This document shows, piece after piece, positions 16,535 to 51,806 of a DNA stretch of 64,000 nucleotides. Each line of letters begins with the position of its first letter. The first letter of the stretch is position 1. Made by a program: the position numbers and the translations under genes. This DNA comes from Urechidicola croceus. GTDB lineage: Bacteria > Bacteroidota > Bacteroidia > Flavobacteriales > Flavobacteriaceae. The DNA lies in assembly GCA_905181865.1 (NCBI GenBank), contig CAJIZG010000005.1, forward strand, positions 414,705 to 478,704. The letters run 5' to 3'. The notes beneath the pieces were generated by a model. That model had not been told where the DNA came from. It did no database searches and saw only the letters and a list, made by a program, of their open reading frames with translations.

Positions 16535-17887
16535 ATGTCAACAGACATCCGAATCAAGAAAGGGTTGGACATTAAATTGAAAGGCGAAGCAGCTCAAGTT
16601 ACCACCAACGCTTTAGCCAGCAACGTATATTCATTGCTACCCGCAGATTTTCACGGAATTATTCCTAAGCTTATTGCAAAGGCAGGCACCAAGGTAAAAG
16701 CAGGTGAGGCTATTTTTCACAATAAAGAGAACGATCAAATGGTGTTTGTTTCTCCTGTGAGCGGTGAGGTCTTGGAAATTATTCGTGGGGAAAAAAGAAA
16801 GATCTTAGCAGTAAAAATTACTGCAGATAAAGATCAATCTTATTTTGAAAATAAGGCGATTGATGTGAAAGTAGTTGATGCCGAAACCATCAAGAGTATA
16901 TTGCTTTCTTCTGGCTGTTGGCCTTTTATAAAACAACGTCCTTACGATGTAATTGCAAATCCGAATGTTGCACCAAAAGCAATTTTCGTTTCAGCATATT
17001 CAAGCGCTCCTTTAACAGCAAATTACGATTATGTGTTAGAAGGAAAAGAAACTGAGTTGCAAGCAGCAATTACTGCTTTAGGGAAATTGACAGAAGGTGC
17101 AGTTCACGTTTCTGTAGGTGCAGATTCTAATTCACCTTTGGATGGCCTAGATGGAATTACTTTACATAAAGTTTCAGGTCCGCATCCATCAGGAAATGTT
17201 GGAACTCAAATTGCGCAAATAGATCCTGTTAATAAAGGAGAAGTTGTTTGGACAGTTACTCCTCAAGATTTGGTAATTATTGGCGAGACATTATTAACTG
17301 GGAAATTCAACGCAGAACGTATCATCGCGGTTGGAGGATCTATTGTGAAAACTCCGAAATACTATAGAACTATAATCGGAGCTGAAGTTTCTACATTTGT
17401 GTATGACGCTGGTGTTGAAAGTGATGAATTTAGATTGATTTCAGGAAATGTATTAACTGGACGTGCAATCAAACCAGATGGGTTTTTAGGATACTATGAC
17501 AATACTGTGACTTTAATTCCTGAAGGAAATTATTACGAATTATTTGGATGGAACAAACCGGTGTTTGAAAAGGTCTCTACTACGCGTGCATTAACTTTTT
17601 CTTGGCTAAACAAAAATAAAGTATATGATTTAGATACCAATACAAACGGTGAGCATAGAGCATTTGTTTTGACTGGAAATTACGAAGAGGTATTCCCTCT
17701 AGATATCTATCCATTGCAATTATTAAAGGCTTGTATGTACCAAGATTTAGATGAAATGGAAGCACTAGGAATGTACGAAGTTGCTCCTGAAGATTTTGCT
17801 TTGACTGAATTTATATGTGTGTCTAAGCAACCACATCAAGATATTATTAGAAAAGGGTTGGACTTAATGATTAAAGAAATTGGATAA
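16535..17887 (+). CDS. nqrA: Na+-translocating NADH:quinone reductase subunit A
   Basis: IRIKKGLDIKLKG, SPVSG, GPHPSGNVG; first gene of a six-gene operon. Confidence 0.96.
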   Translation: MSTDIRIKKGLDIKLKGEAAQVTTNALASNVYSLLPADFHGIIPKLIAKAGTKVKAGEAIFHNKENDQMVFVSPVSGEVLEIIRGEKRKILAVKITADKDQSYFENKAIDVKVVDAETIKSILLSSGCWPFIKQRPYDVIANPNVAPKAIFVSAYSSAPLTANYDYVLEGKETELQAAITALGKLTEGAVHVSVGADSNSPLDGLDGITLHKVSGPHPSGNVGTQIAQIDPVNKGEVVWTVTPQDLVIIGETLLTGKFNAERIIAVGGSIVKTPKYYRTIIGAEVSTFVYDAGVESDEFRLISGNVLTGRAIKPDGFLGYYDNTVTLIPEGNYYELFGWNKPVFEKVSTTRALTFSWLNKNKVYDLDTNTNGEHRAFVLTGNYEEVFPLDIYPLQLLKACMYQDLDEMEALGMYEVAPEDFALTEFICVSKQPHQDIIRKGLDLMIKEIG

Positions 17888-17908
17888 TTATTCATTTCGC
17901 TCAGCGAA

Positions 17909-19135
17909 ATGAAAAATACTAAATATATGGCTCTAAAAGATAAATTACATAACCTAAAAGAAAAGTATAGAGGGACTAAAATGGCACCGTTGTTTAACGG
18001 ATTCCATACCTTTTTATATACTCCAAATGAAACGACACATTCTGGGTCGCATATTCGTGGGGCAGATGATTTAAAGAGAACAATGAACACAGTCATTATG
18101 GCATTGGTTCCTTGTTTAATTTTTGGAATGTTTAATGCAGGGTATCAACATCATTTGGCTGCAGGTGAAATTGAAAGAGTTTCTAGTGGATTCTTTAGCG
18201 CTGAATTTTGGAATGCTGCAAACTTTTGGATAGGATTTGCAAAAATACTTCCTTTGGTATTTGTTTCTTATGTTGTTGGATTGGGAATTGAATTTTTATT
18301 CGCAATCAAAAAAGGACATGAGATTGAGGAAGGATACTTGGTAACAGGAATGTTAGTTCCTTTAATTGTTCCTGTAGATATACCTCTTTGGATGTTATCA
18401 GTAGCCATAATTTTTGGTGTTGTTATAGGAAAAGAAGTATTTGGTGGAACTGGAATGAACATTTTAAATCCGGCTTTATTAATTCGTGCGTTTTTATTCT
18501 TTGCTTATCCAACTTGGATGAGTGGTGATAAAGTATGGGTTGCAGAGGCAGTTGAAAGAACTGGAACTGCAGATGCTATGTCTGGTGAAACTGTTTTAGG
18601 TGCTTTGGCACAGGGGCAAGAAGCCGCATATTCTGCACTAGAAATGTTCTACGGATTTATTCCGGGTTCTGTTGGAGAAACGTCAACCTTATTAATAATA
18701 TTAGGAGCATTATTCTTAATCTTTTCTAAAATTGGAAGTTGGAGAGTCATGCTATCATCAGTAATAGGAGCCATTGTAATGGGGTTGATTTTTAATCAAA
18801 TTACAGCTGCTGGAATCATTGGAGAAAACAGTAAGTTTTATGCTTTAATGAATACGGAGTTTTGGCAGCACTTAGTCTTAGGTGGTTTTGCTTTCGGTAT
18901 AGTGTATATGGCAACAGATCCTGTAACGGCATCACAAACAAATAAAGGTAAATGGATTTACGGTTTCTTAATAGGATTTATTGGAATTTTGATTCGTGTA
19001 TTTAACCCGGCATATCCAGAAGGTATAATGTTATCAATTTTGCTAATGAATGTGTTTGCACCAACAATTGACCATTATGTGGTTCAGGGAAATGTAAAAA
19101 GAAGAATGAAACGGTTAAAAGTTAAATCTGCATAA
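17909..19135 (+). CDS. nqrB: NQR subunit B (likely start ATG 17927)
   Basis: DLKRTM, KEVFGGTGMNILNPAL, SGET FMN site, MATDPVT. Confidence 0.96.
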   Translation: MKNTKYMALKDKLHNLKEKYRGTKMAPLFNGFHTFLYTPNETTHSGSHIRGADDLKRTMNTVIMALVPCLIFGMFNAGYQHHLAAGEIERVSSGFFSAEFWNAANFWIGFAKILPLVFVSYVVGLGIEFLFAIKKGHEIEEGYLVTGMLVPLIVPVDIPLWMLSVAIIFGVVIGKEVFGGTGMNILNPALLIRAFLFFAYPTWMSGDKVWVAEAVERTGTADAMSGETVLGALAQGQEAAYSALEMFYGFIPGSVGETSTLLIILGALFLIFSKIGSWRVMLSSVIGAIVMGLIFNQITAAGIIGENSKFYALMNTEFWQHLVLGGFAFGIVYMATDPVTASQTNKGKWIYGFLIGFIGILIRVFNPAYPEGIMLSILLMNVFAPTIDHYVVQGNVKRRMKRLKVKSA

Positions 19136-19137
19136 CG

Positions 19138-19887
19138 ATGGAAAAAAGAACTGATAAAAATTCTTATACGATCCTATTTGCTGTTATTATGGTGTTTGTT
19201 GTAGGTGCTTCATTAGCATTCTTAGCAACATCATTAAAAGGCAAGATAGACGAGAATAAACGTTTAGAAAAGCAACAAAACATTTTGTATGCTATGGGTG
19301 TTAATGATAACGATGAAAAAAGCGTTGCATTTATTTCTACAGATAATGTTGCAAAAGAATTCAGTACATATATTACGAAGCAGGTCATAATTCAAGGTGA
19401 TAATGTAACCGAAGATGACGAAGCTTATTTAATAGACTTAAAAGTTGAATCGGCGAAATCAAAAGAGGCTTCTTACCAAAGGCGTTTGCCATTATTTATT
19501 GGCGAAAAGGAGGGTGCGCCTTATTATATCGTTCCTATGCGAGGAAAAGGATTGTGGGATGCTATTTGGGGTTATATTTCTTTAGATAAGAACCTAGTTG
19601 TACAGGGTGTGTTTTTTGATCATAAGGGAGAGACACCTGGATTGGGAGCAAATATCAATCAACGATTCTTTATGGATGATTTTACTGGTGAGCATATTTT
19701 AAATCAAAAAGAAAATTTTGCAGGAATTGCAGTTTCAAAATCAAATATAGATCCTAAAAACGAACGCAAAACCGATAATGCGGTAGATGCGATTGCAGGA
19801 GCAACAATTACTGGAGACGGTATTGCAGCGATGATTAGAAAAGATTTGAGAATGTACATGCCTTATTTACAAACTTTAAAAAACTAA
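19138..19887 (+). CDS. nqrC: NQR subunit C
   Basis: [31 protein letters not shown] site. Confidence 0.96.
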
Positions 19888-19891
19888 TTAT

Positions 19892-20536
19892 ATGGGACTT
19901 TTATCAAAAAGAGATACAAAATTAATTACAGACCCATTAGCAGATAATAATCCAATTACAATTCAAGTATTAGGTATTTGTTCTGCCTTGGCAATTACAG
20001 CTGAGTTAGAAGCATCAATAGTAATGTCTATTGCAGTGCTGTTTGTATTAGGATTAGGAAACGTGGTAATCTCTTTAATGAGAAATATCATTCCATCGAA
20101 AATTAGAATTATTGTACAACTAATTGTTGTGGCAACATTGGTAATTATTGTGGATTTAGTTTTAAAAGCATTTGCGTATCAATTAAGTAAAACCTTATCT
20201 GTATTTGTTGGGTTAATTATTACCAACTGTATCATTATGGGACGTTTTGAAGCATTCGCTTTGGCAAACGGTCCTTGGAAATCATTTTTAGATGGTATTG
20301 GGAACTCATTAGGATACGCAGTAATCTTGATTATTGTGGGATTCTTTAGAGAGTTATTAGGATCTGGTTCTTTATTAGGATTCCCTGTATTAGGAGATGC
20401 TATCGAAAAAACTGGCGTATACGCATACGGTTATGAAAATAATGGGTTTATGCTATTGGCACCTATGGCACTGATTACAGTAGGTCTCATTATTTGGGTA
20501 CAACGTAATAAGAGTAAAGCATTAATCGAGGATTAA
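19892..20536 (+). CDS. nqrD: NQR subunit D
   Basis: [26 protein letters not shown]. Confidence 0.96.
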
Positions 20537-20600
20537 ACTTAGTTGACGGTTTATGGTTGTTTGTAAATAACTAAAGACTAACCACTAAAAACTAAAATAT

Positions 20601-21308
20601 ATGGAACATATAGAATTATTTTTCAAATCAATATTTATAGATAACATGGTATTTGCCACCTTCTTAGGAATGTGTTCTTACCTTGCTGTATCTAAAAAAG
20701 TAACAACAGCTGTAGGTTTAGGAGCGGCAGTTATTTTTGTAATGGCAATTACAGTTCCTTTAAACTGGTTATTGGATACGTATCTTTTAAAAGATGGGGC
20801 TTTGGCTTGGTTAGGTCCAGAATATGCCGAATACGATTTAAGTTTCTTATCGTTTATCATGTTTATTGCAACCATTGCAACCATGGTACAATTGGTAGAA
20901 ATTATTGTCGAGAAGTTTTCACCTTCGTTATACAACTCATTAGGTATTTTTTTACCATTAATTGCAGTAAACTGTGCCATTTTAGGGGGGTCGTTATTTA
21001 TGCAGTCTAGAGAAATTCAATCGCTCGGGTTGGCTTTTAATTACGGCGTGAGTTCTGGAATTGGATGGTTCTTAGCAATTTTGGCAATAGCCTCTATTCG
21101 TGAGAAAATTAGATATTCAAATGTACCACCAGCCTTAAGAGGTTTAGGAATTACATTTATTGTAACTGGTTTAATGGCGATCGGATTTATGAGTTTTGGC
21201 GGAATGTTAACTGGCGGAGATGAAGAAGAGGTACCAGCAGAAACAACAGTAGTTATTTCAGTGGAACAACAAAACGATATTGCAAATAATACTAAAGTAA
21301 TAGAATAA
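20601..21308 (+). CDS. nqrE: NQR subunit E
   Basis: [25 protein letters not shown]. Confidence 0.96.
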
Positions 21309-21312
21309 AAAA

Positions 21313-22620
21313 ATGATATTAGCAACAAGCACAGGAGGTACAATGGCAGTAACGGTAGTTATATTTCTACTGATTTCACTTGCCTTGATCGGACTTTTAC
21401 TATTCATAAAACAAAAATTATCACCATCAGGACCTGTAAAGATTTTGATTAATGGTGAGCGCGAAATTATAGTGGGTTCTGGAGATTCTTTATTGAGTAC
21501 TTTAGGAGCACAAAAAATATTTTTACCCTCTGCATGTGGGGGAGGTGGTACTTGTATTCAATGTGAATGCCATGTAACAAGTGGCGGTGGGGAAGCACTT
21601 CCTACCGAAACTCCACACTTTTCTAGAAAAGAATTAAAACACGGAGCAAGATTGTCCTGTCAAGTTAAAGTAAAACAAGACATGGAAATTATGATTCCAG
21701 AAGAGGTTTTCGGAATTAAAAAATGGGAAGCTACCGTTGTAAGAAATTATAACGTTGCATCTTTCATTAAAGAATTTGTTGTTGAGATTCCGGAAGATAT
21801 GGGTTACAGAGCAGGAGGATATATTCAAATTGAGATTCCACCTTGCGAAGTAAAATATTCTGATATGGATATTACAGCACACCCCGAAGAACACGATACT
21901 CCGGATAAATTTCAAGCCGAATGGGACAAGTTTAAACTTTGGCCATTGGTAATGAAAAATAAAGAGACTATTGAGAGAGCATACTCTATGGCTTCTTATC
22001 CTGCAGAGGGAAGAGAAATCATGTTAAATGTACGTGTCGCTTGTCCTCCTTTTGATAGATCAACAGGTGGTTGGATGGATTTAAATCCAGGGATCGCGTC
22101 TTCATATATCTTTAACCAAAAGCCAGGAGACAAAGTAACTATTTCTGGGCCTTATGGTGAATTCTTTATCAACGAATCTGAATCAGAAATGCTATATGTA
22201 GGTGGTGGAGCTGGTATGGCGCCATTGCGTTCTCACTTGTACCAATTGTTCAGAACCTTAAAAACTGGTAGAAAAGTCACCTATTGGTATGGTGGTCGCT
22301 CTAAAAGAGAATTGTTCTATTTAGATCACTTTTATAACTTAGAGAAAGACTTCCCGAACTTTAAATTTTACTTAGCCTTATCTGAACCTATGGAAGAAGA
22401 TAACTGGAAAGTGAAAGAAAATATTGATGCTCCAGGAGATGGATTTATAGGATTCATTCACAATTGTGTGATTGAAAATTACTTGAGTCTTCATGAATCA
22501 CCAGAAGATATTGAATTGTATTTCTGTGGCCCACCATTAATGAACAATGCTGTTCAGAAAATGGGAGAAGACTTTGGTCTTGCCGATGAGAACATCAGGT
22601 TCGATGACTTTGGAGGATAA
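21313..22620 (+). CDS. nqrF: NQR subunit F
   Basis: [12 protein letters not shown] 2Fe-2S, RAYSMA, GGAGMAP, CGPP, FDDFGG end. Confidence 0.97.
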
Positions 22621-33200: not shown

Positions 33201-34106
33201 ATGATAGAAAAAAAATTAATTGCAGCAACATATACTCCATTAAAAGAAGACAGTTCCATTAATTTGGAATTAATCCCAACCTATAGTGACTTTCTACAAA
33301 GGAATAATGTATCAGGCGTTTTTGTCAATGGAACCACAGGAGATTTTACCTCATTGACTGTAGACGAGCGAAAATTGATTATTAATGAATGGGCTACAAA
33401 AAGAAATGAAAACTTTACGGTAATTAATCATGTCGGCCATACTAGTTTGAAGATAGCCAAAGAATTAACTATTCATTCAGCAGAGAAAGTAGATGGTATT
33501 TCGGCTTTACCTCCGTTTTATTTTAAACCGAGGTCATTGCAAAGTTTGTTAGATTATTGTAAGGAAATTGCCGCATGTGCTCCGAATTTACCTTTCTACT
33601 ACTATCATATTCCGATTCTTACTGGCGCGAACTTTTCAATGATAGAATTTTTAGAATTGGCAGATGAGCAGATTCCAAACTTAGGCGGAATCAAATTTTC
33701 TAATAATGATATTATAGGGCTAAGGCAGTGCTACAATTTTAAAGCGGGGAAATATGCCGTTTTTTATGGAGTGGATGAAATGTTTTTATCAAGCCTTCCC
33801 TACGGGATTAAAGGCTGGGTGGGTAGTACTTATAACCATTTAGCACCATTGTATCATAAAATTTATGAGGCTTTTAATAAGGGAGATATATCCTTGGCCA
33901 GTGAACTACAAGATAAGTCGGTTCAGTTTGTGCAAATGCTAGATGCTTTGGGTGGCTTCAATGGCGTAGGGAAATCGTTTATGAAAATAGTAGGAATTGA
34001 TTGCGGGCCGAGTAGATATCCTCATACGACACTTTCTAACAAGGATTTGTTAGAAGTAAAAACACAATTTGAAGAATTAAATATTATGAGTTACACTAAT
34101 AAATAG
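33201..34106 (+). CDS. nanA: N-acetylneuraminate lyase (DHDPS family)
   Basis: VNGTTGD, YYYHIP (catalytic Tyr), GIKFS (Schiff-base Lys), GVDE, GSTYN; sialic-acid gene context. Confidence 0.85.
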   Translation: MIEKKLIAATYTPLKEDSSINLELIPTYSDFLQRNNVSGVFVNGTTGDFTSLTVDERKLIINEWATKRNENFTVINHVGHTSLKIAKELTIHSAEKVDGISALPPFYFKPRSLQSLLDYCKEIAACAPNLPFYYYHIPILTGANFSMIEFLELADEQIPNLGGIKFSNNDIIGLRQCYNFKAGKYAVFYGVDEMFLSSLPYGIKGWVGSTYNHLAPLYHKIYEAFNKGDISLASELQDKSVQFVQMLDALGGFNGVGKSFMKIVGIDCGPSRYPHTTLSNKDLLEVKTQFEELNIMSYTNK

Positions 34107-34129: not shown

Positions 34130-34837
34130 TTATAAAATTCTGTAAAAATGAGGATCTAAATGAGTTCTCATGGCTGATCTGAAAGTCTCTGGTGTTCCAA
34201 TTTTAAGATTGTCGAGAAGATTTCTGTGGTTAATAATCGAACCTTTTACATGGTCTTTGGAAAGTTCTTCTTGTTCATGTACAAACTCAAAAATAGGGAG
34301 TAATAAAACTTGAAATCTTTGCAGAGTCACATTTCCAGACATTTGATATAACTTTCCATGAAACTGAATTTCATGTTCTAAGCTAAAAATGGAATCGTCA
34401 ACGCCCTGTTTTTCATCTGCCTCAACAATTTGTTCTAATTCGTCAATTCCTTTTTGTGTTTTTCTAGCAAATAAGGAGTCTGCCATTCCCATTTCTAAAA
34501 TTAACCGCAACTCAAATAGGTTTTTTAACGTCTCGTTACCTAATAACTTTGGATCCAAAACACGTTCGAAATTATCAATAAAATCGGGCTGTGTTAAAAT
34601 CATTCCTCGGTGCTTTTTAGATTCAATAATACCTAAAGTTCTTAATCTAAGCGACGCTTCTCGCACAACTGTCCTGCTTACTCCTAGCGATTCAACCAGT
34701 TCTAATTCCTTAGGAAAGGCATCTCCTGGAACTAAATTATTCTCTTTAATAAATGCCACCAATCGAAGTTCAACTTTATCAACAAGTGATAAATTATCTA
34801 AGGGTTTAATTTTCTTAATAGTTTTTGTTTTTGCCAT
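34130..34837 (-). CDS. FadR/GntR family transcriptional regulator (probable nan repressor)
   Basis: wHTH ELELVESLGVSRTVVREA, FCD domain LFELRLILE...FHGKL; divergent from the nanE operon. Confidence 0.92.
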   Translation of the reverse strand: MAKTKTIKKIKPLDNLSLVDKVELRLVAFIKENNLVPGDAFPKELELVESLGVSRTVVREASLRLRTLGIIESKKHRGMILTQPDFIDNFERVLDPKLLGNETLKNLFELRLILEMGMADSLFARKTQKGIDELEQIVEADEKQGVDDSIFSLEHEIQFHGKLYQMSGNVTLQRFQVLLLPIFEFVHEQEELSKDHVKGSIINHRNLLDNLKIGTPETFRSAMRTHLDPHFYRIL

Positions 34838-34949: not shown

Positions 34950-34962
34950 TATGTTAGACATA
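34950..34962 (+). promoter_or_regulatory. Putative FadR/GntR operator TATGTTAGACATA just downstream of promoter TATGTTTG (34939-34946)
   Basis: Core of a 7-bp-arm palindrome ATTATGT-TAG-ACATAAT (34948-34964). Confidence 0.72.
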
Positions 34963-36138
34963 ATGAAAGAGATCCAACTAAGCGAACTTTACAAAAGCAC
35001 TCTTTTACAAGATGTGATTCCATTTTGGGAGCAAAATTCTGTCGACTGGCAAAATGGAGGGTACTATACTTGCCTAGATAGGAAGGGGAAAGTTTTTGAG
35101 CGGGATAAGTTTATGTGGCTACAAGGTCGACAAGCTTGGATGTTTTCTATGCTGTATAATAATGTTGAGAAAAATGAAAAATGGCTGAAAATCGCAAAAA
35201 ACGGAATTGATTTCTTAATCAATAAAGGAATGGATCTCGAGGGGAATTTCTATTTTTCATCTACAGAACAAGGAGAGCCTTTAGTTCAGCCATATAATAT
35301 ATTCTCAGATTGCTTTGCGGCTATGGCTTTTAGTCAATACGCAATTGCAACTAAAGACGAATCAATAAAAAAACTAGCAATTCAAACATATTATAATATT
35401 TTAAAGAAAAAAGACAATCCAAAATTACAGTTCGAAAAATCTACCGGAGCCAGACCTTTAAAAAGTTTTGCATTTCCGATGATTCTTTCCAATTTGGTAA
35501 TTGAATTTGAAGATGTGTTAAAAAATGAGGAAGTTGAAAAAATAATTAACTTTAGTATTCATGAAGTTATGGAAGTCTTTTTAGATAAAAATTCTGGACT
35601 TGTTTATGAATTTGTAAAACCTGATGGTTCTTTAGAAGACAGTTTCAACGGGCGTCTTCTAAATCCGGGCCATGGTATCGAAGCAATGTGGTTTATGATG
35701 GATATTGGGGTTCGAAGAAATGATCAACAATTAATTCAAAAAGCAGTAAACACAACAATAAAAATATTGGAACATAGCTGGGATGATCAGTTTGGAGGCA
35801 TCCTATATTTCATGGATGCTAATGGAAAACCACCTCAACAATTAGAATGGGATCAAAAATTGTGGTGGGTACATTTAGAAAGTTTAATAGCATTATCTAA
35901 AGCGTATGAACTAACACAAAGAAAAGAAGTACTGGCTTGGTATCAAAAAGTACACGACTATGCATGGTCACATTTTTCAGACCCAGAGAACGGCGAATGG
36001 TTTGGCTATTTAAACAGACAAGGCGAGGTGTTACTAGATTTAAAAGGTGGGAAATGGAAGGGTTGTTTTCATGTCCCAAGAGCCATGTATCAGTGCTGGA
36101 AATCATTTGAAAATATTGAGAGACAATTAAAGGATTAA
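34951..36138 (+). CDS. nanE: N-acylglucosamine 2-epimerase (AGE family; likely start ATG 34963)
   Basis: [41 protein letters not shown]. Confidence 0.93.
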
Positions 36139-36917: not shown

Positions 36918-36940
36918 TATATCTAATCAAATTCGAAAAA

Positions 36941-38074
36941 ATGAAAAATTATATTCTAGTATTCTTATCAATTTTAACACTTTCTGTAAGTGCTCAAAAG
37001 GAAGAATTCTCGATTGCCGAGGGAGTTACTCGGTATGTCGATCTTTTTAATACAACCATGGAAGACGGAGTTTCTTGTTATCGAATTCCATCAATTGTTA
37101 CGGCTCCAAATGGAGATATAATTGCAACTATAGATGAGCGCGTTCCATCGTGCTCGGATTTAAAAGACAGTAAAGACATCAATATTGCGATTCGAAGAAG
37201 TTCTAATAACGGAAAATCATGGACACCTATTGAAATTATTGTAGATTTTCCGTTGGGACAATCTGCTTCAGATCCATCTATGATTGTTGATAATATCACA
37301 AAGGAAATTTTCTTGTTTTACAATTATATGGATTTAGACAAGGAAAAGGATGTGTATTATTTACATGTGGTAAAAAGTGCTGATAATGGAAAAACTTGGA
37401 GTAAACCAGAAGATATTACTTCTCAAATTAGTAAGCCAGAATGGCACAAGGACTTTAAATTTATTACTTCAGGCAGAGGAATTCAAACATCTACGGGTAA
37501 GTTGTTACATTGTATGGTAAACCTAGATAATGGTACGCATTTGTTCGGAAGTGATGATCATGGTAAAACATGGTTTTTTATTGATACTCCAATTTCTCCA
37601 GCAAATGAATCTAAGGTTATTGAATTGGCTGATGGAACTTGGATGGTCAATGCGAGATCCAAAGATAAAAAAGGCTTTCGATATGTACATACTTCTCATG
37701 ATGAAGGAGAAACATGGACTGCAAAGTCCGAAGAACAATTGATAGATCCAGGTTGCAATGCAAGTATTATTAGATATACATCAATTGATGAAGGCTATAA
37801 AAAAAACAGACTTCTTTTTTCAAATGCAAATTCCGTAAAAGGCCGAGTAAACATGACTGTGAAAATTAGTTATGATGAAGGTAAAACATGGCCTGTAGAA
37901 AAAATAATTTATGAAGGTGGATCAGCCTATTCCTCATTAACGATTCTAGAAAATGGAGATATAGGATTATTTTTTGAACAAGATGTTTATAAGAAAAATC
38001 CATTCGTGAGTTTTTCCTTAAAATGGTTGACCGATGGTGACGATAAATACAAAAAACCGAAGAGCCTAAAATAG
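36941..38074 (+). CDS. Exo-sialidase GH33 (1)
   Basis: Signal peptide, YRIP, five Asp boxes (SSNNGKSW...SYDEGKTW), SAYS Tyr nucleophile. Confidence 0.92.
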   Translation: MKNYILVFLSILTLSVSAQKEEFSIAEGVTRYVDLFNTTMEDGVSCYRIPSIVTAPNGDIIATIDERVPSCSDLKDSKDINIAIRRSSNNGKSWTPIEIIVDFPLGQSASDPSMIVDNITKEIFLFYNYMDLDKEKDVYYLHVVKSADNGKTWSKPEDITSQISKPEWHKDFKFITSGRGIQTSTGKLLHCMVNLDNGTHLFGSDDHGKTWFFIDTPISPANESKVIELADGTWMVNARSKDKKGFRYVHTSHDEGETWTAKSEEQLIDPGCNASIIRYTSIDEGYKKNRLLFSNANSVKGRVNMTVKISYDEGKTWPVEKIIYEGGSAYSSLTILENGDIGLFFEQDVYKKNPFVSFSLKWLTDGDDKYKKPKSLK

Positions 38075-38129
38075 AAATATTATTTTAGTAAATTGTCGAC
38101 TATTTTAAATAACTGAGTAGATTAGTAAC

Positions 38130-40994: not shown

Positions 40995-41025
40995 AAGAAG
41001 TATACAATACATAAAATATATACAT

Positions 41026-42138
41026 ATGAAAACCTATAAAGAATTAAACACAAGCAGACGCGTATTAATGGGTCCTGGACCAAGTGATACGCATCCAAGA
41101 GTTTTAAAAGCAATGTCAACTCCTTTAATAGGTCATTTAGACCCAGAATTTTTAGAAATAATGGATGACATAAAATCTATGACACAAGAAACATTAAAGA
41201 CAAAGAACGAATTGACTTTTGTTGTATCAGCACCTGGAAGTGCAGGGATGGAAACGTGTTTGGTTAATTTATTAGAGCCTGGTGATGAAGCCGTAGTCTG
41301 TATAAATGGTGTTTTTGGGACACGTTTGGCTGATATTGCAGAACGTTGTGGCGCAAAAGTAATTAAGATAGAAGCAGCATGGGGCTCTCCAATTAACCCA
41401 GACGATGTGGAAGCTGCATTAAAGACATGTAATCCAAAATTATTAGCTATTGTCCATGCAGAGACTTCAACAGGTGTATTACAGCCTCTAGAAGAAATTA
41501 GCAAAATATCCAAAAACGCTGGAGCACTTTTAGTAGTTGATGCTGTGACTTCATATTGCGGGACTGAATTAAAAGTAGATGAGTGGGGAATTGATGCTTT
41601 ATATTCTGGAAGCCAAAAATGTTTAAGTGCGCCTCCTGGTCTATCTCCTGTAACCTTTAGTCAAGCTGCTATTGATGTACTAAATAATAGAAAAACAAAA
41701 GTTCAAAGTTGGTTTTTAGATTTAACAATGGTTAAAAATTATTGGTCAGGAGCGAAGAGAGCGTATCATCATACGGCACCAGTTTCTGCTATGTTTGCCA
41801 TGAGGGAAGCTTTAAGATTGGTTCTTGAAGAGGGGCTTGAAAACAGGTTTAAGCGTCATCAGAAAAATCACGAATTATTACGTGATGGATTAGAGGCAAT
41901 GGGCTTTAAATTCTTAGTGGATAAGGAATATAGATTACCGATGTTGAACGCCGTTACAATTCCTGCAGGAGTTGACGATGCAAATGTTAGAAAACGATTG
42001 TTAGAAGAATATAATATAGAAATTGGTGGAGGATTAGGCCCTTATGCTGGAAAAATTTGGCGTATTGGATTAATGGGTGAAAGTTCTACTAAAAATAATG
42101 TAAACATGTTATTGTCTGCATTGAAACAAGTAATATAA
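41026..42138 (+). CDS. Alanine--glyoxylate/serine--pyruvate aminotransferase (class V)
   Basis: LMGPGPS, VHAETSTG, VDAV, SGSQKCLSAPPG, YHHTAP, WRIGLMG. Confidence 0.92.
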   Translation: MKTYKELNTSRRVLMGPGPSDTHPRVLKAMSTPLIGHLDPEFLEIMDDIKSMTQETLKTKNELTFVVSAPGSAGMETCLVNLLEPGDEAVVCINGVFGTRLADIAERCGAKVIKIEAAWGSPINPDDVEAALKTCNPKLLAIVHAETSTGVLQPLEEISKISKNAGALLVVDAVTSYCGTELKVDEWGIDALYSGSQKCLSAPPGLSPVTFSQAAIDVLNNRKTKVQSWFLDLTMVKNYWSGAKRAYHHTAPVSAMFAMREALRLVLEEGLENRFKRHQKNHELLRDGLEAMGFKFLVDKEYRLPMLNAVTIPAGVDDANVRKRLLEEYNIEIGGGLGPYAGKIWRIGLMGESSTKNNVNMLLSALKQVI

Positions 42139-42151
42139 TACTAAATTAATT

Positions 42152-43036
42152 ATGTCAGTAATCACAGATTTTTCCGATTTTCATCATCAGGTTTCAACAA
42201 TATTTAAACAGCCTCAGTCCTCAGAAGAATGGGAGCAATATCGATTGACCGATGAGCAAGTAGCACATTTTCATGAATTTGGTTACGTTTCTGGAATTAA
42301 ACTCTTGGAAGAAAATCAAATAAATTTATTGAGAAAGGAACTAGAAGAGTTGAGAGATCCTAAACATCCTGCGCATCATCTTTTTTACGAGTTTCATTCA
42401 AATGAATCCACAAATAGTGATGCTGTTTTGTTTCATTCTTTAGGTCATTGGCGCATAGGTTTAAATTTTCATGACGTCCTTTGGAATCCCGCTTTTGTAA
42501 TGGCCGCTCATCAATTATTGGAAAACAAACCAGTTCGATTCTGGCACGATCAACTATTTTGTAAACCTGCAAAACATGGTGGAGTTGTTGCCTGGCACCA
42601 AGATTACTCTTACTGGACACGTACTATTGCAATGCAACATTTAACCTGTTGGACTGGGTTAGATGATGCTACAACACAAAACGGCTGTTTACATTATATT
42701 CCAAAAAGTCACAAATGGGGGCTTCTAGATGCCCCTAATTTGGCTGGTAATATGGATGAATTGCTGCAGTATCTGAGTCCCGAACAAAAAAAGGAATTCA
42801 ACCCAGTAGCGATTGAATTGAAAAAAGGGTATAGTACTTTTCACCATCCTTTGATGGTTCATGGATCCTATGAAAACAACTCTCAATTAAGAAGAAGAGC
42901 TTTTGTATTAAACGTTTTTGCTGATGGAACCATAAGCAATACAGATCAAGAATTATTACAAGGTGTTCCTATAATTTCAAAAGGAAAAAAAATGGAGGGA
43001 AAATTTTTTCCTTTGCTTTATGATCAACATTCCTAA
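42152..43036 (+). CDS. PhyH-family Fe(II)/2-oxoglutarate dioxygenase
   Basis: HxD in WHQDYSYW, distal His in MVHGS, Arg in RRRAF. Confidence 0.9.
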   Translation: MSVITDFSDFHHQVSTIFKQPQSSEEWEQYRLTDEQVAHFHEFGYVSGIKLLEENQINLLRKELEELRDPKHPAHHLFYEFHSNESTNSDAVLFHSLGHWRIGLNFHDVLWNPAFVMAAHQLLENKPVRFWHDQLFCKPAKHGGVVAWHQDYSYWTRTIAMQHLTCWTGLDDATTQNGCLHYIPKSHKWGLLDAPNLAGNMDELLQYLSPEQKKEFNPVAIELKKGYSTFHHPLMVHGSYENNSQLRRRAFVLNVFADGTISNTDQELLQGVPIISKGKKMEGKFFPLLYDQHS

Positions 43037-43078: not shown

Positions 43079-44224
43079 ATGAAACTTAATGTAAAAACTT
43101 TTATTAAATGCCTTACCCTCTTACTATTATTCAGTATCAAAATAAATTCACAGGGTACGAAGCAATTAAATAAAGAATTATCGAAAGATATAAAAACGTT
43201 GTTCACCCCTAGTGAAGGAGACTATAATTGTTTTAGAATTCCAGCTGTTGTTGTGGCTAAAGACGGCAGTATATTAGCCTTTGCTGAGGCTAGAAAGAAA
43301 AGTTGCTCGGATACAGGTAATATCGATATAGTGATGAAAAAATCTACTGACAATGGAGCATCATGGAGTAATTTGATAGTTATTTGGAATGATGGACAAA
43401 ATGTATGTGGGAATCCTGCACCTGTAGTAGATGCTAAAACAGGTACAGTTCATTTGCTATTGACTTGGAATAATGGAGACGACCATGAATCTGAAATAAT
43501 TGCTCAAACTAGTGGAGAAACTCGAGAAGTTTATCATTTACAATCTTCAGACAACGGTGACTCTTGGTCACAACCAAAAAATATTACTGCAACTACGAAA
43601 TTAAAAAATTGGACGTGGTATGCAACAGGGCCTGTACATGGAATTCAATTGAAAAAAGGGCCATATAAAGGAAGGCTCATGATTCCTTCGGACCATATAG
43701 AAGCGGGTACAAAAAAATATTATTCTCATGTGATTTATTCTGACGACAACGGAGTATCTTGGGAATTGGGAGGAAGAACTCCACAAGATCAAGTGAATGA
43801 ATGTACACTAGTACAACTAGAAAATGGTGATTTGATGTTGAACATGCGTAATTATGAGCGAAAAGAAGATCAGGCGCGTCAGGTAGCAATAAGCAAAGAT
43901 GGAGGAGTGACATGGGGAAATCAGCATATTGACACCAATTTGCCCGAACCACGTTGTCAAGCAGCCTTACTAGCTGTTATGAGAAAACGGAAGCAAGTAT
44001 TACTTTTTATCAATCCAGCAAACCCAAAGAAAAGAGTCAATATGACACTATCTGTGAGTAGGGATCAAGGAAAAAGTTGGGATGAAAAAATCAGTGTTTT
44101 TAAAGGCCCTTCCGCCTATTCTGATCTTGTTGAATTGAATACCAATCAAATATTTGTGTTTTTTGAAGCAGGAGAAAAGAATGCGTATGAAGGAATTCAT
44201 TATAAATTAATTGATCTGGATTAA
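43079..44224 (+). CDS. Exo-sialidase GH33 (2)
   Basis: Signal peptide, FRIP, five Asp boxes, NMRN, AYSD. Confidence 0.92.
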   Translation: MKLNVKTFIKCLTLLLLFSIKINSQGTKQLNKELSKDIKTLFTPSEGDYNCFRIPAVVVAKDGSILAFAEARKKSCSDTGNIDIVMKKSTDNGASWSNLIVIWNDGQNVCGNPAPVVDAKTGTVHLLLTWNNGDDHESEIIAQTSGETREVYHLQSSDNGDSWSQPKNITATTKLKNWTWYATGPVHGIQLKKGPYKGRLMIPSDHIEAGTKKYYSHVIYSDDNGVSWELGGRTPQDQVNECTLVQLENGDLMLNMRNYERKEDQARQVAISKDGGVTWGNQHIDTNLPEPRCQAALLAVMRKRKQVLLFINPANPKKRVNMTLSVSRDQGKSWDEKISVFKGPSAYSDLVELNTNQIFVFFEAGEKNAYEGIHYKLIDLD

Positions 44225-44280: not shown

Positions 44281-46971
44281 ATGAAACAATTAGCGGTTGT
44301 TCTACTTTTATACTTCCTAAGTTTTATTAATTCAAATGCTCAAAAATCTTCTAGTATTTTTGATTGGACTTACGATAAAGAGATTCCGAATGAAGTAGGA
44401 TTGAATGGTTCATTTATGGGAATTCATAATGATGTATTAATCATTGCAGGTGGTGCTAATTTTCCAAACACTCCTGTCTGGGAAGGTGGTGAAAAAGTAT
44501 GGTATTCATCCATTTATGTTTTAGAAAAAAAAGGGACTAAGTCGAAATGGCATCTAGAACCTTCAGTTAGATTAACTAATGCATTGGCATACGGAGTTTC
44601 AATAAGCACTCCACAAGGTGTTTTGTGCATTGGTGGTGATAATGAAACAGAAGTATTCAAAGATGTCTTTTTATTAAAATGGAATAAAAAAAGCAATAAA
44701 ATAGAGATTCAAGACCTACCTCCTATGCCTATAAATTTATACAATATGGGCGCAAGTATTGTTGAAGATATTGTTTTTGTAATTGGAGGACAAGAGTCAA
44801 AAAGTACCGGAGCAACAAATCATTTTTTGTCGTTTAATTTAACTTCAACATTGACAAGTAAAGCATATACATGGGAGCAATTAGAAAATTTTCCTGGAAG
44901 AAGGAGAGTGCAACCGGTAGTTGTTGGTCAAAGTAATGGACATCAAGATTGTTTATATGTATTTAGTGGAATTTCATATGATCCCACTGCAGAAGTAACC
45001 CATACTATGCTAGATGATGTCTATGAATTTAATCCTCATAAAAATCGATGGACACAAAAGGAATCTGTTCCCAACAATGGAACACCGGGAGTAATAGGAG
45101 GTTATATTGCGGCTGCTCCAGCCATAAAAATGGGAGATTCTCACATTGTGATTTTTGGAGGAGCCGGAGGTGAACAGCAAAACCTTTCGCGACGAATTCC
45201 GATTTGGAATGCCATTAAAAAGTTAAAAAGTGAAATTAATCAAAATGAAGAAACGATTGCGAAAATTGATTCATTAAATATGATTGATAATGAATTGTTG
45301 AAAACCACTCGATTCAGTAAAATCGTTTGGTCATATCATTCAATCACAGATACTTGGAGTAAAAAAGGGGTGCTACCAAGTGACGCTCAGGTAGTAACTC
45401 AAGCATTGAATTGGAATAATAACATAGTAATATCTGGTGGAGAAATACATCCAGGTGTAAGAACTCCAAAAATTACCATTGCCACACAAAAACCCTATGA
45501 AGCCAGTTTTGGCTGGATAAATTATATAACTCTTATTACATATTTAATGTTAATGGTTTGGATGGGATGGTATTTCTCACGAAAAAATAAAACAACAGAT
45601 GATTATTTTCTTGCGGGAGGTAGAATTCCATGGTGGGCTGCTGGGTTAAGTATTTATGCTACTATGTTAAGTGCCATTACGTATTTGTCACAACCGGCAT
45701 TAGCATATTCTTTTGACTGGCAGGCATATTTGGGGTATTTTGCCATTTTGATTGTAGTCCCTGTTGTAATAGCTTTTTATCTGCCTTTTTTCAGGAAATT
45801 AAATATTACCACGGCATACGAATATTTGGAAAAAAGATTCAACTTAACTATTAGAATGTTTGGAAGTATATCTTTCATCTTATTTCAATTAGTAAGAATG
45901 GGAATTGTAGTATATCTTCCTGCCTTAGCCCTTTCAACAGTTGTCGGAATTGATATTTATTTAGCAATCAGTGTTATGGGGGTTTTAGCAATTCTTTATA
46001 CCTATATGGGTGGAATGGAAGCCGTGATCTGGACAGATGTGGTACAAGTAATTGTATTGATGGCAGGTTTAATCATTGGATTGATTTATATCGGCATTGA
46101 GATTGGAGATGTAGGCTATATTTTTGATACGGCATTGGCCGATGGTAAACTTCAAATGGTAGATTTACGATGTAGTTTTATAGAAGTAGTAACATGGTCC
46201 TTATTTATTGGCACATTTGCTTTGACATTAATTCCATACACCACAGACCAGTCAGTAGTGCAGAGATACATGACGACATCGAGTGAAAAAGAAGCACGAA
46301 AAAGTATATGGCTAACTGGAATTATTACTCTCCCAGCGGGTCTTCTAATATTTGCAATGGGTACATTTTTGTATGTCTATTTTAAAGAACATCCCGAATT
46401 TTTGAGTGTCGGTATGCAGAACGACAGTGTATTTCCTTTATTTATTACAAATCATTTACCTCCTGGGGTTGCAGGTTTGGTTATAGCTGGAATTTTTTCT
46501 GCTTCCATGTCGAGTTTAGATAGCAGTATGCACAGTATTTCTACCGTTGTGACCGTAGATTTTTATAAGAGATTTACGAAAGTCTATTCTGATACTAATG
46601 GTCTTAAAATTGCAAAATGGACTACAGTTATTGTAGGAGTTTTCGGAACCCTGATTGCATGTTTAATGGCCGCTTTCCCTGTAAAATCGTTATTCTTTTT
46701 GTTTCAAGAAGTAATTGGTCTTCTGGGAAGTGCAATGGCAGGAATATTTATTCTCGGAATTTTTGTTAAGAAAGCCAATTGGAAGGGAACACTAATAGGA
46801 GCTGTATTTAGTATTATAGTTTTAGTGTTTGTTAAATATAACACCCCTATTAACTTTTATATCTATCCTTTAATTGCAATTCCTATATGTGTCATTGGAG
46901 GATATCTTTTCAGTCTAATTTTAAAAGTTGAAGAAAAAGACATATCCGATTTGGTCTATTCAAAAAAATAA
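44281..46971 (+). CDS. Kelch-repeat sialic acid mutarotase (NanM-like) fused to a Na+/solute symporter (SiaT-like)
   Basis: Signal peptide; about 410 aa kelch propeller (IAGGANFP, LCIGG, VIGG, ISGGEIHPGVRTP); then SSS domain DYFLAGG..WWAAGLSIYAT.LSAITY, YTYMGGMEAVIWTD, DQSVVQRY. Confidence 0.88.
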   Translation: MKQLAVVLLLYFLSFINSNAQKSSSIFDWTYDKEIPNEVGLNGSFMGIHNDVLIIAGGANFPNTPVWEGGEKVWYSSIYVLEKKGTKSKWHLEPSVRLTNALAYGVSISTPQGVLCIGGDNETEVFKDVFLLKWNKKSNKIEIQDLPPMPINLYNMGASIVEDIVFVIGGQESKSTGATNHFLSFNLTSTLTSKAYTWEQLENFPGRRRVQPVVVGQSNGHQDCLYVFSGISYDPTAEVTHTMLDDVYEFNPHKNRWTQKESVPNNGTPGVIGGYIAAAPAIKMGDSHIVIFGGAGGEQQNLSRRIPIWNAIKKLKSEINQNEETIAKIDSLNMIDNELLKTTRFSKIVWSYHSITDTWSKKGVLPSDAQVVTQALNWNNNIVISGGEIHPGVRTPKITIATQKPYEASFGWINYITLITYLMLMVWMGWYFSRKNKTTDDYFLAGGRIPWWAAGLSIYATMLSAITYLSQPALAYSFDWQAYLGYFAILIVVPVVIAFYLPFFRKLNITTAYEYLEKRFNLTIRMFGSISFILFQLVRMGIVVYLPALALSTVVGIDIYLAISVMGVLAILYTYMGGMEAVIWTDVVQVIVLMAGLIIGLIYIGIEIGDVGYIFDTALADGKLQMVDLRCSFIEVVTWSLFIGTFALTLIPYTTDQSVVQRYMTTSSEKEARKSIWLTGIITLPAGLLIFAMGTFLYVYFKEHPEFLSVGMQNDSVFPLFITNHLPPGVAGLVIAGIFSASMSSLDSSMHSISTVVTVDFYKRFTKVYSDTNGLKIAKWTTVIVGVFGTLIACLMAAFPVKSLFFLFQEVIGLLGSAMAGIFILGIFVKKANWKGTLIGAVFSIIVLVFVKYNTPINFYIYPLIAIPICVIGGYLFSLILKVEEKDISDLVYSKK

Positions 46972-47069
46972 AACCATTAATATTCAATCTAAATTTATCA
47001 ATTAAAAAAGGAGCGAGTTTAAAACTAATAAACATCGCCCCCAGTGCGCACTGCAATTCAAAGAACCAA

Positions 47070-47929
47070 TTAACTTTTTTTATATTTTCTCGTTCTCTTA
47101 ATTTCAATTTCTGTTATGGTTCCATTTGCCGCTGTTCATGTAGCAATAGCATCACATGTACCGTCGCCATAATTTAACGTTGACAATTCACCACTTTTAG
47201 AAATCTCTTTAACACCAAACGCAATATACCCGCATCCCTCTGGTTTCACAAATGGTAAAATAATCTCCATTTCAAAAATACTTCCATCTGCTTTTATCAG
47301 TTCATGAGACCCAGTAATGGTTCATTCATTGTCCTCATAAGAATCGGTATCACTACCTGCGGTTACTTCAAACAAACGCGAGCCAGTTTTAGTAATTGTC
47401 TCTTCTTCAGTTTCAATGATTAAATTAGTTTCACCACTCATTTGTGGATTCCCATTCTCATTTTCATCAAGGTGTTCATATTGTCTAGTACATTAATAAC
47501 ATATCCATTTACAGAGAAATCAGTAAACAAAATGGAACGGCTTTTTGAAGATTCTAAGTTTTCTATAACAATTATAATCGTACCAGAAACTTCATTTTCA
47601 CGTTTATCAATTCAATCTTCAGCAAAAGAAATTGTTATCGTTTTAGTATTATCAACCTCCTCGACAGAAAAATTAACACAGGACGAGAAAAAATTTGCAC
47701 GATCAAATATATGACCTGTTCCCTTTCCAGAAAGGGCATCAAAGTCTAAATCTTTAGCGTATAGGGCGTATTCATCTACCACACTTTCAACTTCTTCAAT
47801 AGAAGTTTCTAGAGAAATATATTCTGAAATGGCAAAATTGTCATCCCCTATCTCCAAATTATCTTTTTCACAAGACACAAAAATTATTGCCAATACAATA
47901 CTTACTTTTAAAAAATTATTCATTTTCAT
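47070..47929 (-). pseudogene. Lipoprotein pseudogene
   Basis: Lipobox FVSC; TGA stops at 47612-47614, 47322-47324 and 47136-47138 plus a frameshift near 47490; coherent C-terminus (C.YIAFG.K, NYGDGTCD). Confidence 0.8.
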
Positions 47930-50600: not shown

Positions 50601-50804
50601 ACTTTCACCTTTGATATCTCCTAATTTATCTTGAAAAATAAAAGTAATTTATTCGAGTTTGTTGTTATAGTTTCTTGACCTCGCTTTCTGCCTTGCAAGT
50701 TTCCTTTAAAACCATAGTCTGTATAAAATGCTGTTAACACGTATATTCTAGACTTTAATTCTTCTGTTAATTTCTTTATTCTAAATGAGCCTTTAGTTCC
50801 TATT

Positions 50805-51806
50805 AACCTGAGTTCGATTCATAAAAACTTAACTGATTAGACGCTACTTTTTGATATTTAATGGAAGGTTTTTTAGGCAGAAAACTATATGCTAAAAGGC
50901 CTGCAACTATATTTGACAAGAAGTTAGTAAAACTTCTATGTCTAGAATGTTCAATTTGACAACTATTTTTAAGTTCATCATGTACCGTTTCAATAATAGA
51001 ACGTTTTCTAAGTAATATTTTATCGCTCATAGTCATTAAAGAATTCTTCGTATTGTTTTTAATATGAGTAATCAAATGTAATCCGTGAGCAAAAAGAAGT
51101 TGCATCAAATCCTTACCAATATATCCTTTGTCAGCATATAATTTTCCGTATATTTTATCTAAAAAAATTTTCTTTTTTAGTGGTGTTCTGTCGTCAATAT
51201 TGGCTTGAGTAATGGTAAAATTCAGGATTTCTCCTTTGTCATTTATAATACTGTGAAGTTTGAATCCTTGAAACCACCCCATCGTAGATTTTCTAGTAGT
51301 AGCAATGCCTTTACATACTTTATTGTTTCTAATTCGTTTGGGTTTACAAACTCTAATAGGTGTAGAATCTACAAAAGAAATACCTGTAGAATCACCCAAA
51401 CGGCAGGTTTTTAAAAACAAAGTCATCGCCATTAAATTTTGACCAACGAGTTCTGTAAATCTGTTGTAAGAAACCGTTGAAGGAAAATCACCTTTTATCT
51501 ATTTTTGAACATAAAAAACATAGAAATGCTTGAAGGTTCTAAAACCACTTAACTGAAATAGAATACAGCGTATAATCACCTCACTTTTACTCATTATAGA
51601 CGGTCGTTTTGATGGATTTCCTAAAAGAGATGCATCAACGACTTTATCATATTCTTTGCAGAATTCGTCAACAATACAAAATATTTCTGTAATTTTAGGA
51701 TAGATTAACATAGATGAAGTTTTAGATTGATCTTCAGATCTTTAATTTACTTAAAACCTATCTTTTATCTAAAAAATGGAGCCTAAATATTAATCGAACT
51801 CAGGTT
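50805..51806 (-). mobile_element. IS982-family element with inactivated transposase
   Basis: Perfect 15-bp terminal IR AACCTGAGTTCGATT (50805-50819 / 51792-51806); transposase 51711-50803 with one in-frame TAG (51499-51501); FVDST, GFKLH, ADKGY, KRSIIETV. Confidence 0.92.

Follow-up and report, generated by a model that had tools for sequence, protein, structure and literature searches.

The question raised by this locus is whether a single bacterial gene joins a sialic acid mutarotase covalently to the transporter that it would serve. The gene, siaF, lies at 44281-46971 on the plus strand of a 64,000-nucleotide stretch of the Urechidicola croceus genome (contig CAJIZG010000005.1), which is referred to here as the window and whose numbering is used throughout unless another contig is named. 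A first-pass annotation, made from the letters alone, had described a periplasmic kelch propeller tethered to a SiaT-like symporter and had proposed that conversion of the alpha-anomer of sialic acid to the beta-anomer is coupled directly to Na+-driven uptake. As judged from its sequence and a structural model, siaF is a true fusion of a periplasmic NanM-like propeller with a SiaT-like sodium symporter, and its product is likely a SiaF-type sialic acid transporter of the ST5 family that works by the proposed mutarotase-to-symporter mechanism.

The fusion and its mutarotase-like propeller

siaF is a single frame from ATG to stop that encodes 896 residues, with zero internal stops in the open reading frame (ORF) listing and its translation. 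The start is well defined because the frame extends just 6 open codons 5' of the ATG, to a total open frame of 902 residues. The signal peptide, NanM-like kelch domain and sodium:solute symporter (SSS) domain that the first-pass annotation had read in this uninterrupted frame are borne out by the ORF, by inspection of the N terminus (signal peptide) and by the Pfam and NCBIfam profiles (both domains). The parts are arranged as follows.

44281..46971, plus strand: siaF fusion ORF, comprising signal peptide, permuted mutarotase propeller and SSS transporter (ORF, Pfam, NCBIfam)
44281..44343, plus strand: Sec-type signal peptide, residues 1-21 (MKQLAVVLLLYFLSFINSNA, followed by QK), without a lipobox Cys (inspection; helix 2-19 in the AlphaFold 2 (AF2) model)
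44356..45489, plus strand: six-bladed kelch propeller, residues 26-403, cyclically permuted relative to NanM/YjhT (Pfam, NCBIfam, alignment with 2UVK, model)
45172..45309, plus strand: helical hairpin within the propeller, residues 298-343, with helices 302-316 and 323-342 (alignment with 2UVK, model)
45436..45465, plus strand: catalytic motif GGEIHPGVRT, residues 386-395 (alignment with NanM, conservation)
45490..45513, plus strand: 8-residue linker from the last propeller strand to the first membrane helix, residues 404-411 (model, homologue alignment)
45514..46920, plus strand: 13-helix sodium:solute symporter domain, residues 412-880 (match to 5NV9, alignment, model)

The Pfam profile NANM (PF24996; cut-off 45) matches residues 147-404 of the product with 123.7 bits, and SSF (PF00474) matches residues 442-842 with 173.9 bits. 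Among the NCBIfam profiles, TIGR00813 (sss) gives 257 bits, and TIGR03548, named "cyclically-permuted mutarotase", matches residues 39-398 over positions 2-322 of a 323-position profile (E = 1.5e-61). By inspection, the N terminus is built like a Sec signal peptide, with n-, h- and c-regions, and contains no Cys; its conservation is weak (0.29), as is usual for signal peptides. The AF2 model of the whole fusion, built on 109 homologues, has a mean predicted local distance difference test score (pLDDT) of 88.8 and a predicted template modelling score (pTM) of 0.84.

A frame of this kind might also be produced by an error of assembly or gene calling that joins two neighbouring genes. No supporting point for such an origin was found, and its likelihood is practically nil. 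The frame is uninterrupted, its architecture recurs in more than 100 full-length homologues at 44-82% identity, and the junction carries a linker of fixed length in 107 of the 109 homologues, which come from many assemblies with complete genomes among them. When 1.84 billion representative proteins were searched, fusions of 800-960 residues made up almost all of the best 150 clusters at 50% identity, and the number of such clusters that share the architecture exceeds 150. The conserved junction and architecture across homologues thus rule out an artefact as the origin of the fusion.

Alignment of the propeller with NanM (2UVK) is split in two, with the order exchanged: residues 29-146 match NanM 231-350, and residues 193-397 match NanM 40-218. 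This corresponds to the cyclic permutation described by TIGR03548. The similarity to 2UVK is low (E = 1.5e-11), and TIGR03547, which has the blade order of NanM/YjhT, scores only 121 bits against a cut-off of 256 and gives no colinear full-length match. Being permuted, the predicted domain falls outside the colinear NanM family. The catalytic pair of NanM, which we take to be E209 and R215 in 2UVK numbering, aligns with E388 and R394 in the GGEIHPGVRT motif, where G387, E388, P391, G392 and R394 are invariant in 109/109 homologues. The description of the domain as NanM-like is upheld by this Glu/Arg pair. The siaF fusion is the sole NanM-family sequence in the 3.42-Mb genome.

The permutation puts the catalytic strand at the end of the propeller, just before the membrane tether. 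In the AF2 model, the last propeller strand ends at residue 403 and the first membrane helix begins at residue 412; the segment 395-414 is identical in length in 107 of the 109 homologues. A stand-alone permuted propeller is encoded in a genome of another genus of the same family (G173) by a 399-residue frame that covers residues 38-401 of the query and then ends, so the fusion adds almost no spacer. The fixed tether and the pTM of 0.84 hint indirectly that the modelled propeller may hold a fixed position on the transporter.

The hairpin (helices 302-316 and 323-342) sits, in the model and the alignment, where NanM has its helical insert. SiaF propellers have been described as lacking the dimerization hairpin of NanM (Severi et al. 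2021, PMC8461474). Among the 109 homologues, the insert is about 50 residues long in most, ranges from 15 to 57 residues and is poorly conserved; in eight proteins it is just 15 residues. When the hairpin was compared in length with every periplasmic loop across the 109 homologues, no signal emerged, and docking of the hairpin on a transporter loop was dropped as an explanation because the eight hairpin-less proteins have identical loop lengths. The tethered propeller is probably monomeric.

The symporter half and its binding sites

The top match of the SSS half in the PDB is Proteus mirabilis SiaT (PmSiaT; 5NV9, E = 1.4e-110), with 41% identity over 470 residues, and 5NV9 also ranks first in the PDB by fold. 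The AF2 model superposes on 5NVA and 5NV9 with TM-scores of 0.95 and 0.94, respectively, and root mean square deviations of 1.7-1.9 Å, and 13 membrane helices, as in SiaT, can be read from its helices. By analogy with SiaT, the domain would be oriented with its N terminus outside and its C terminus inside. The outward N terminus invoked in the first-pass annotation is consistent with the model and with the published topology argument (Severi et al. 2021, PMC8461474): an N-out 13-helix fold places a propeller led by a signal peptide in the periplasm, so the topology is coherent.

The residues of SiaT that were mapped onto the siaF product are those mutated by Wahlgren et al. (PMC5931594), who showed by mutagenesis the roles of the carboxylate and Na+ site residues of PmSiaT. 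The correspondence is as follows.

Carboxylate ligands: SiaT S60, T63 and R135 are S464, T467 and R539 (kept)
Na2 site: SiaT A56, L59, A339, S342 and S343 are A460, L463, A741, S744 and S745 (all five identical)
Na3 site: SiaT D182 and S346 are D586 and S748 (kept)
Na3 site: SiaT S345 is D747 (a Ser-to-Asp change)
Anomeric hydroxyl: SiaT T58 is M462 (differs)
Glycerol tail and N-acyl side: SiaT F78, Q82, F243, N247 and Q250 are A482, Y486, T645, T649 and P652 (differ)

Ten of these positions, S464, T467, R539, L463, A741, S744, S745, D586, D747 and S748, never vary among the 109 homologues, and A460 is kept in at least 90% of them. In a wider sample of 126 distant fused representatives, at 50% identity or less, S464 is kept in 126/126, R539 in 124/126, D586 in 123/126 and S744 in 124/126. 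Because both the Na2 and the Na3 sites are kept, transport would probably be coupled to two Na+ ions.

The Ser-to-Asp change at the position of SiaT S345 (D747; window 46519-46521) is seen in 109/109 homologues and in 81/126 of the distant representatives. With this residue the Na3 site would hold two carboxylates, D586 and D747.

The label "SiaT-like" given in the first-pass annotation holds, within the site, for the carboxylate triad and the Na+ positions and does not extend to the glycerol and N-acyl side of the pocket. Of the residues in the Neu5Ac (N-acetylneuraminic acid)-binding set of SiaT (T58, S60, T63, Q82 and R135), three are kept, T58 being replaced by M462 and Q82 by Y486. The distal pocket positions vary widely across the fused family, as seen in the 126 representatives, whereas the pocket of the flavobacterial branch is fixed, with M462 in 73/75 and Y486 in 75/75 of the closer homologues. 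The Capnocytophaga canimorsus protein has the same A482/G485/Y486 pocket and is encoded by an orphan gene, outside any operon of the kind described below. We read the M462/A482/Y486 pocket of the branch as a trait of the lineage and not as the marker of a special substrate because this orphan gene shares it.

The sialic acid locus and the proposed mechanism

siaF is the last of a nine-gene run on the plus strand with gaps of 5-56 bp, in the order N-acylglucosamine 2-epimerase (AGE), creatininase family, GH33, 954-residue FAD/FeS oxidase, class-V aminotransferase, PhyH dioxygenase, second GH33 and siaF. The genes in the window that bear on sialic acid use are the following.

33201..34106, plus strand: DHDPS-family gene, candidate sialic acid lyase (NanA/NanL)
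34130..34837, minus strand: GntR/FCD-family regulator, located between the candidate lyase and the operon
34951..36138, plus strand: N-acylglucosamine 2-epimerase (AGE/NanE-II type), first gene of the operon
36941..38074, plus strand: GH33 exo-alpha-sialidase with a signal peptide, in the siaF operon
43079..44224, plus strand: GH33 exo-alpha-sialidase, catalytic domain only, with a signal peptide, 56 bp 5' of siaF
16535..22620, plus strand: nqrA-F, Na+-translocating NADH:quinone reductase (NQR), outside the nan locus

The lyase, AGE, GntR and two GH33 genes lie within 11 kb, mostly in one operon. Both sialidases consist of the catalytic domain only, with signal peptides and no lipobox, and match hydrolytic exo-alpha-sialidases, so the alpha-anomer would be set free in the same compartment as the propeller, the periplasm. 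Genes similar to nagA and nagB are adjacent on another contig of the genome and ROK kinases are present, so the sialic acid pathway of the Bacteroidota type appears complete.

The steps of the proposed mechanism can be set out on this basis. After Sec export and cleavage of the signal peptide, the monomeric permuted propeller would remain in the periplasm, linked by an 8-residue tether of rigid length to the first (N-out) helix of the putative Na+/sialic acid symporter. The two periplasmic GH33 sialidases encoded in the operon would free the alpha-anomer of N-acylneuraminic acid from imported sialoglycans, and E388 and R394 of the propeller would hasten ring opening and closing to give the beta-anomer. 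The symporter would grip the carboxylate through S464, T467 and R539 and import the sugar with Na+ bound at the Na2 and Na3 sites, driven by a sodium gradient kept up by NQR. In the cytoplasm, the lyase, AGE epimerase, a ROK kinase and NagA/NagB would finish catabolism. The mechanism put forward in the first-pass annotation is supported, in that it fits every testable element. Fold, conserved residues, architecture, genomic setting and distribution are established here, whereas the activity of the mutarotase, the cargo, the coupling to Na+ and any direct hand-over or channelling from one domain to the other are inferred. Its last part, uptake powered by NQR, stands insofar as nqrA-F is present in the window; the link is generic, since the genes lie 22 kb upstream and the enzyme would energize any Na+ symporter.

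Several points weigh against a mutarotase that feeds a sialic acid symporter. The score of TIGR03548 is 208.3 bits, below its curated cut-off of 243.2, for a match that is near full-length. The catalytic Glu is present in 91/126 and the Arg in 79/126 of the distant representatives, counts taken from a noisy alignment. To our knowledge, no member of the cyclically permuted family has yet been shown to act as a mutarotase. The distal SiaT pocket is changed (T58M, F78A, Q82Y, F243T, N247T and Q250P); in PmSiaT, Q82D abolishes transport and T58A does not (PMC5931594). No SiaF has been assayed, the experimental evidence being described as "very scarce" (Severi et al. 2021, PMC8461474), and a full-text literature search for SiaF gave nothing after that paper. 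Spontaneous anomerization is fast at alkaline pH (PMC8141875), so at the pH of seawater, close to 8, a mutarotase may bring little kinetic advantage. Even then, periplasmic release beside the transporter and low temperature would leave a period during which the alpha-anomer predominates. Since alpha-Neu5Ac inhibits sialidases (PMC8141875), the propeller may in addition free the operon sialidases from inhibition by their product.

The same kinetic argument has been weighed for a propeller that is not mainly an enzyme, that is, a tethered domain for substrate capture or gating that raises the local concentration of sialic acid or docks a periplasmic sialidase. The fast spontaneous anomerization at pH 8 (PMC8141875), a catalytic pair that is not universal in the wider family, the fixed tether length with its pTM of 0.84, and natural fusions that put a sialidase, a second propeller or a DUF1080 domain ahead of the propeller would all agree with such a role. 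However, none of the 109 homologues, the most distant at 46% identity, departs from E388, R394 or the GGE..PG.R motif, a constancy that is hard to explain without catalysis, and the stand-alone permuted propeller of G173 implies that the domain functions without a transporter. We regard a mainly non-enzymatic propeller as quite improbable.

The preferred reading, a catalytic propeller that feeds the symporter, can be extended, with considerable doubt, to a propeller that acts as a fixed cap over the outward vestibule and is more than a loosely tied helper. With the sialidase encoded upstream, this arrangement would form a line of release, anomerization and import with real hand-over, and the pocket of the branch (M462 at the anomeric hydroxyl, A482 and Y486 at the N-acyl and glycerol side) could give a preference for an anomer or a sialic acid unlike that of SiaT. 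Such a line is hinted at by the invariant length of the tether, with the catalytic strand last before the membrane, and by the existence of a natural single chain of sialidase, propeller and transporter.

The gene content of the operon also bears on the identity of the cargo. The window from 36144 to 43036 holds four genes that are unusual in a nan cluster, for a creatininase-family amidohydrolase, a GlcD/GlcF-like oxidase (954 residues), a class-V aminotransferase and PhyH; the first sialidase gene stands among them, between the epimerase and the second sialidase. The locus of Urechidicola vernalis (L004), whose protein is 74% identical, has the order GntR, AGE, creatininase, sialidase, PhyH, sialate O-acetylesterase, GH20, sialidase and SiaF; it shares the creatininase and PhyH genes and lacks the oxidase and aminotransferase. 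In a Fodinibius relative, SusC/SusD, sialidase, esterase and GH20 genes lie beside SiaF and AGE.

It has been considered, given these genes, that the same machine has another main cargo, the flavobacterial branch importing chiefly N-glycolylneuraminic acid (Neu5Gc) or an O-substituted sialic acid of marine animals. The carboxylate and Na+ part would then be generic, with selectivity left to the distal pocket, and we judge both the cargo and this division of labor to be unlikely. Positions 78, 82 and 243, which have been proposed to give Staphylococcus aureus SiaT its preference for Neu5Gc (PMC6039549), are A482, Y486 and T645 here, with Y486 fixed in the closer homologues as noted above; the amidohydrolase, oxidase, aminotransferase and PhyH products could handle a glycolyl group; and NanM tolerates changes at C5 and acts on deaminoneuraminic acid (KDN) (PMC8141875). 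The force of these points is reduced by U. vernalis, which has the same pocket without the oxidase and aminotransferase genes, and by PmSiaT, whose affinity is similar for Neu5Ac and Neu5Gc (PMC6039549), so that the pocket may be unselective. The presence of an AGE epimerase points to an N-acyl sugar without specifying it. A link between the A482/Y486 pocket, taken as a mark of Neu5Gc, and the glycolyl-type operon genes is likewise weakened by the orphan gene of C. canimorsus.

Other features of the region were observed. A lipoprotein-like gene on the minus strand at 47069-47929 (MKMNNFLKVSIVLAIIFVSC...) is broken in frame by a stop after codon 105 and by more stops beyond it; it looks decayed and lies in the 1.1-kb gap between siaF and a galactonate dehydratase gene. 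A DDE transposase (DDE_Tnp_1_3, 209 residues) is encoded at 50803-51432 on the minus strand, 3.8 kb 3' of siaF. The GC content is flat across the window, with no sign of a genomic island. A genome of another species of the same genus (G155) is too divergent to set the borders of the locus, with 65-85% DNA identity and no synteny. The sigma-70 consensus is expected to fit Bacteroidota promoters poorly, and a promoter and terminator scan that used this consensus gave counts that did not differ from those of shuffled sequence. An Rfam scan of the window found two tRNAs and nothing else.

Distribution and comparison with known systems

The fusion recurs in the kind of survey that the first-pass annotation had suggested. 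About 20 of 201 genomes of the same family, sampled at one per genus (~10% of genera), hold the full-length fusion, as do 7 of 301 genomes in a sample of the phylum (~2%), where some genomes have two or three copies. The family matches fall into two groups, five at 64-100% identity and fourteen at 38-42%, which implies two divergent branches. The other species of the same genus (G155) lacks both the siaF gene and the locus, and siaF is an accessory trait.

Larger or repeated arrangements were also seen. Three fused siaF paralogues, 40-44% identical, lie within 20 kb in a genome of another family of the phylum (G368:C2:70218-90627). A metagenome contig from ENA (L003:4001-7789, protein P0151) encodes in a single ORF of 1262 residues a GH33 BNR sialidase, a NanM-like propeller and an SSS domain, downstream of SusC/SusD and in the order of the adjacent sialidase and siaF genes of the window; the contig is a single one of low coverage (4.7), and the triple fusion may be a sequencing error that merges two genes. 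Two extended fusions (P0122/P0146) comprise two NanM/kelch propellers and an SSS domain (1275 residues) and a 3-keto-disaccharide hydrolase/DUF1080 domain, propeller and SSS domain (1096 residues). The 894-residue homologue of C. canimorsus (L005:10001-12685) is annotated in its source as an "ABC transporter substrate-binding protein", which looks like a misannotation.

FastTree and a quick IQ-TREE run on the SSS domains, without the SiaF reference sequence A0A1H4AP10, place the siaF product (P0001) in clades of fused proteins only, with support of 98-100. An unfused 495-residue SSS protein of the same genome (G000:C3:791355-792698, minus strand), 33% identical, lies outside the SiaF/SiaT group. 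PmSiaT is nested among the fused proteins in the free trees (SH-aLRT 97). A constrained tree with all fused proteins in one clade and PmSiaT outside has a log-likelihood higher by 22 and is not rejected (p = 0.77, approximately unbiased test); an origin of SiaT from within SiaF was dropped because of this higher likelihood.

SiaF is the first reported covalent coupling of an enzyme to a transporter in the biology of sialic acids, and it raises the question of whether a tethered mutarotase improves the uptake of freshly released alpha-sialic acid. The present protein is a reasonable candidate for biochemistry, being compact, modelled with high confidence, intact at its predicted sites and partnered by an operon sialidase. 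Its occurrence in about one in ten genera of a family whose closest named relatives are marine indicates that the SiaF family is not mainly a gut trait, and its spread bears on the use of animal-derived sialoglycans by such bacteria. Little is added as discovery, since the architecture, the topology argument and the idea that a mutarotase feeds the transporter have been published by Severi et al. (2021, PMC8461474) for SiaF as a clade within ST5. The additions are small: the geometry of the catalytic strand and fixed tether, the hairpin and the pocket of this branch, the prevalence figures and the larger natural fusions.

The siaF product is, on the features of its sequence, a marine flavobacterial addition to the known SiaF family, of which it has every sequence-level feature. 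Like the SiaF proteins of Severi et al. (2021), it combines a signal peptide, a permuted NanM domain and a 13-transmembrane-helix SSS domain in one chain, and it shares with them the Bacteroidota host, the nan cluster and the proposed role of a mutarotase that gives the transporter beta-sialic acid. C. canimorsus is named there as bearing siaF, and a protein of that species covers 97% of the query at 60% identity. The emphasis of the paper is on gut communities, with no "marine" or "Flavobacter" in its main text, whereas the host here belongs to the marine Flavobacteriaceae. This branch also keeps a two-helix hairpin, in contrast to the published description of SiaF, and has its own pocket residues (M462/A482/Y486).

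With PmSiaT (5NV9/5NVA; Wahlgren et al. 2018) the protein shares the fold, the carboxylate Ser, Thr and Arg, the Na2 site, and the Asp and one Ser of Na3. SiaT is a single domain of about 500 residues without an N-terminal propeller, whereas the siaF product has 896 residues with a 400-residue domain that would be periplasmic; the six pocket replacements given above and the change of S345 to the invariant D747 are further differences. Being fused, and with Q82 and T58 replaced, the predicted transporter is not SiaT proper. The propeller resembles NanM/YjhT (2UVK) in being a periplasmic six-bladed kelch propeller with the catalytic Glu and Arg in GE....G.R and a helical insert at the same place. 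It differs in that the last two blades of NanM come first, and NanM is a soluble homodimer whereas the domain here is tethered. The NanZ-NanM protein of Akkermansia (ST4, major facilitator superfamily; Severi et al. 2021) is likewise a sialic acid transporter with an N-terminal periplasmic mutarotase fused to it. Its transporter belongs to an unrelated, proton-driven superfamily and needs an extra helix to correct the topology, whereas the N terminus of the SSS domain in the siaF product would already lie outside.

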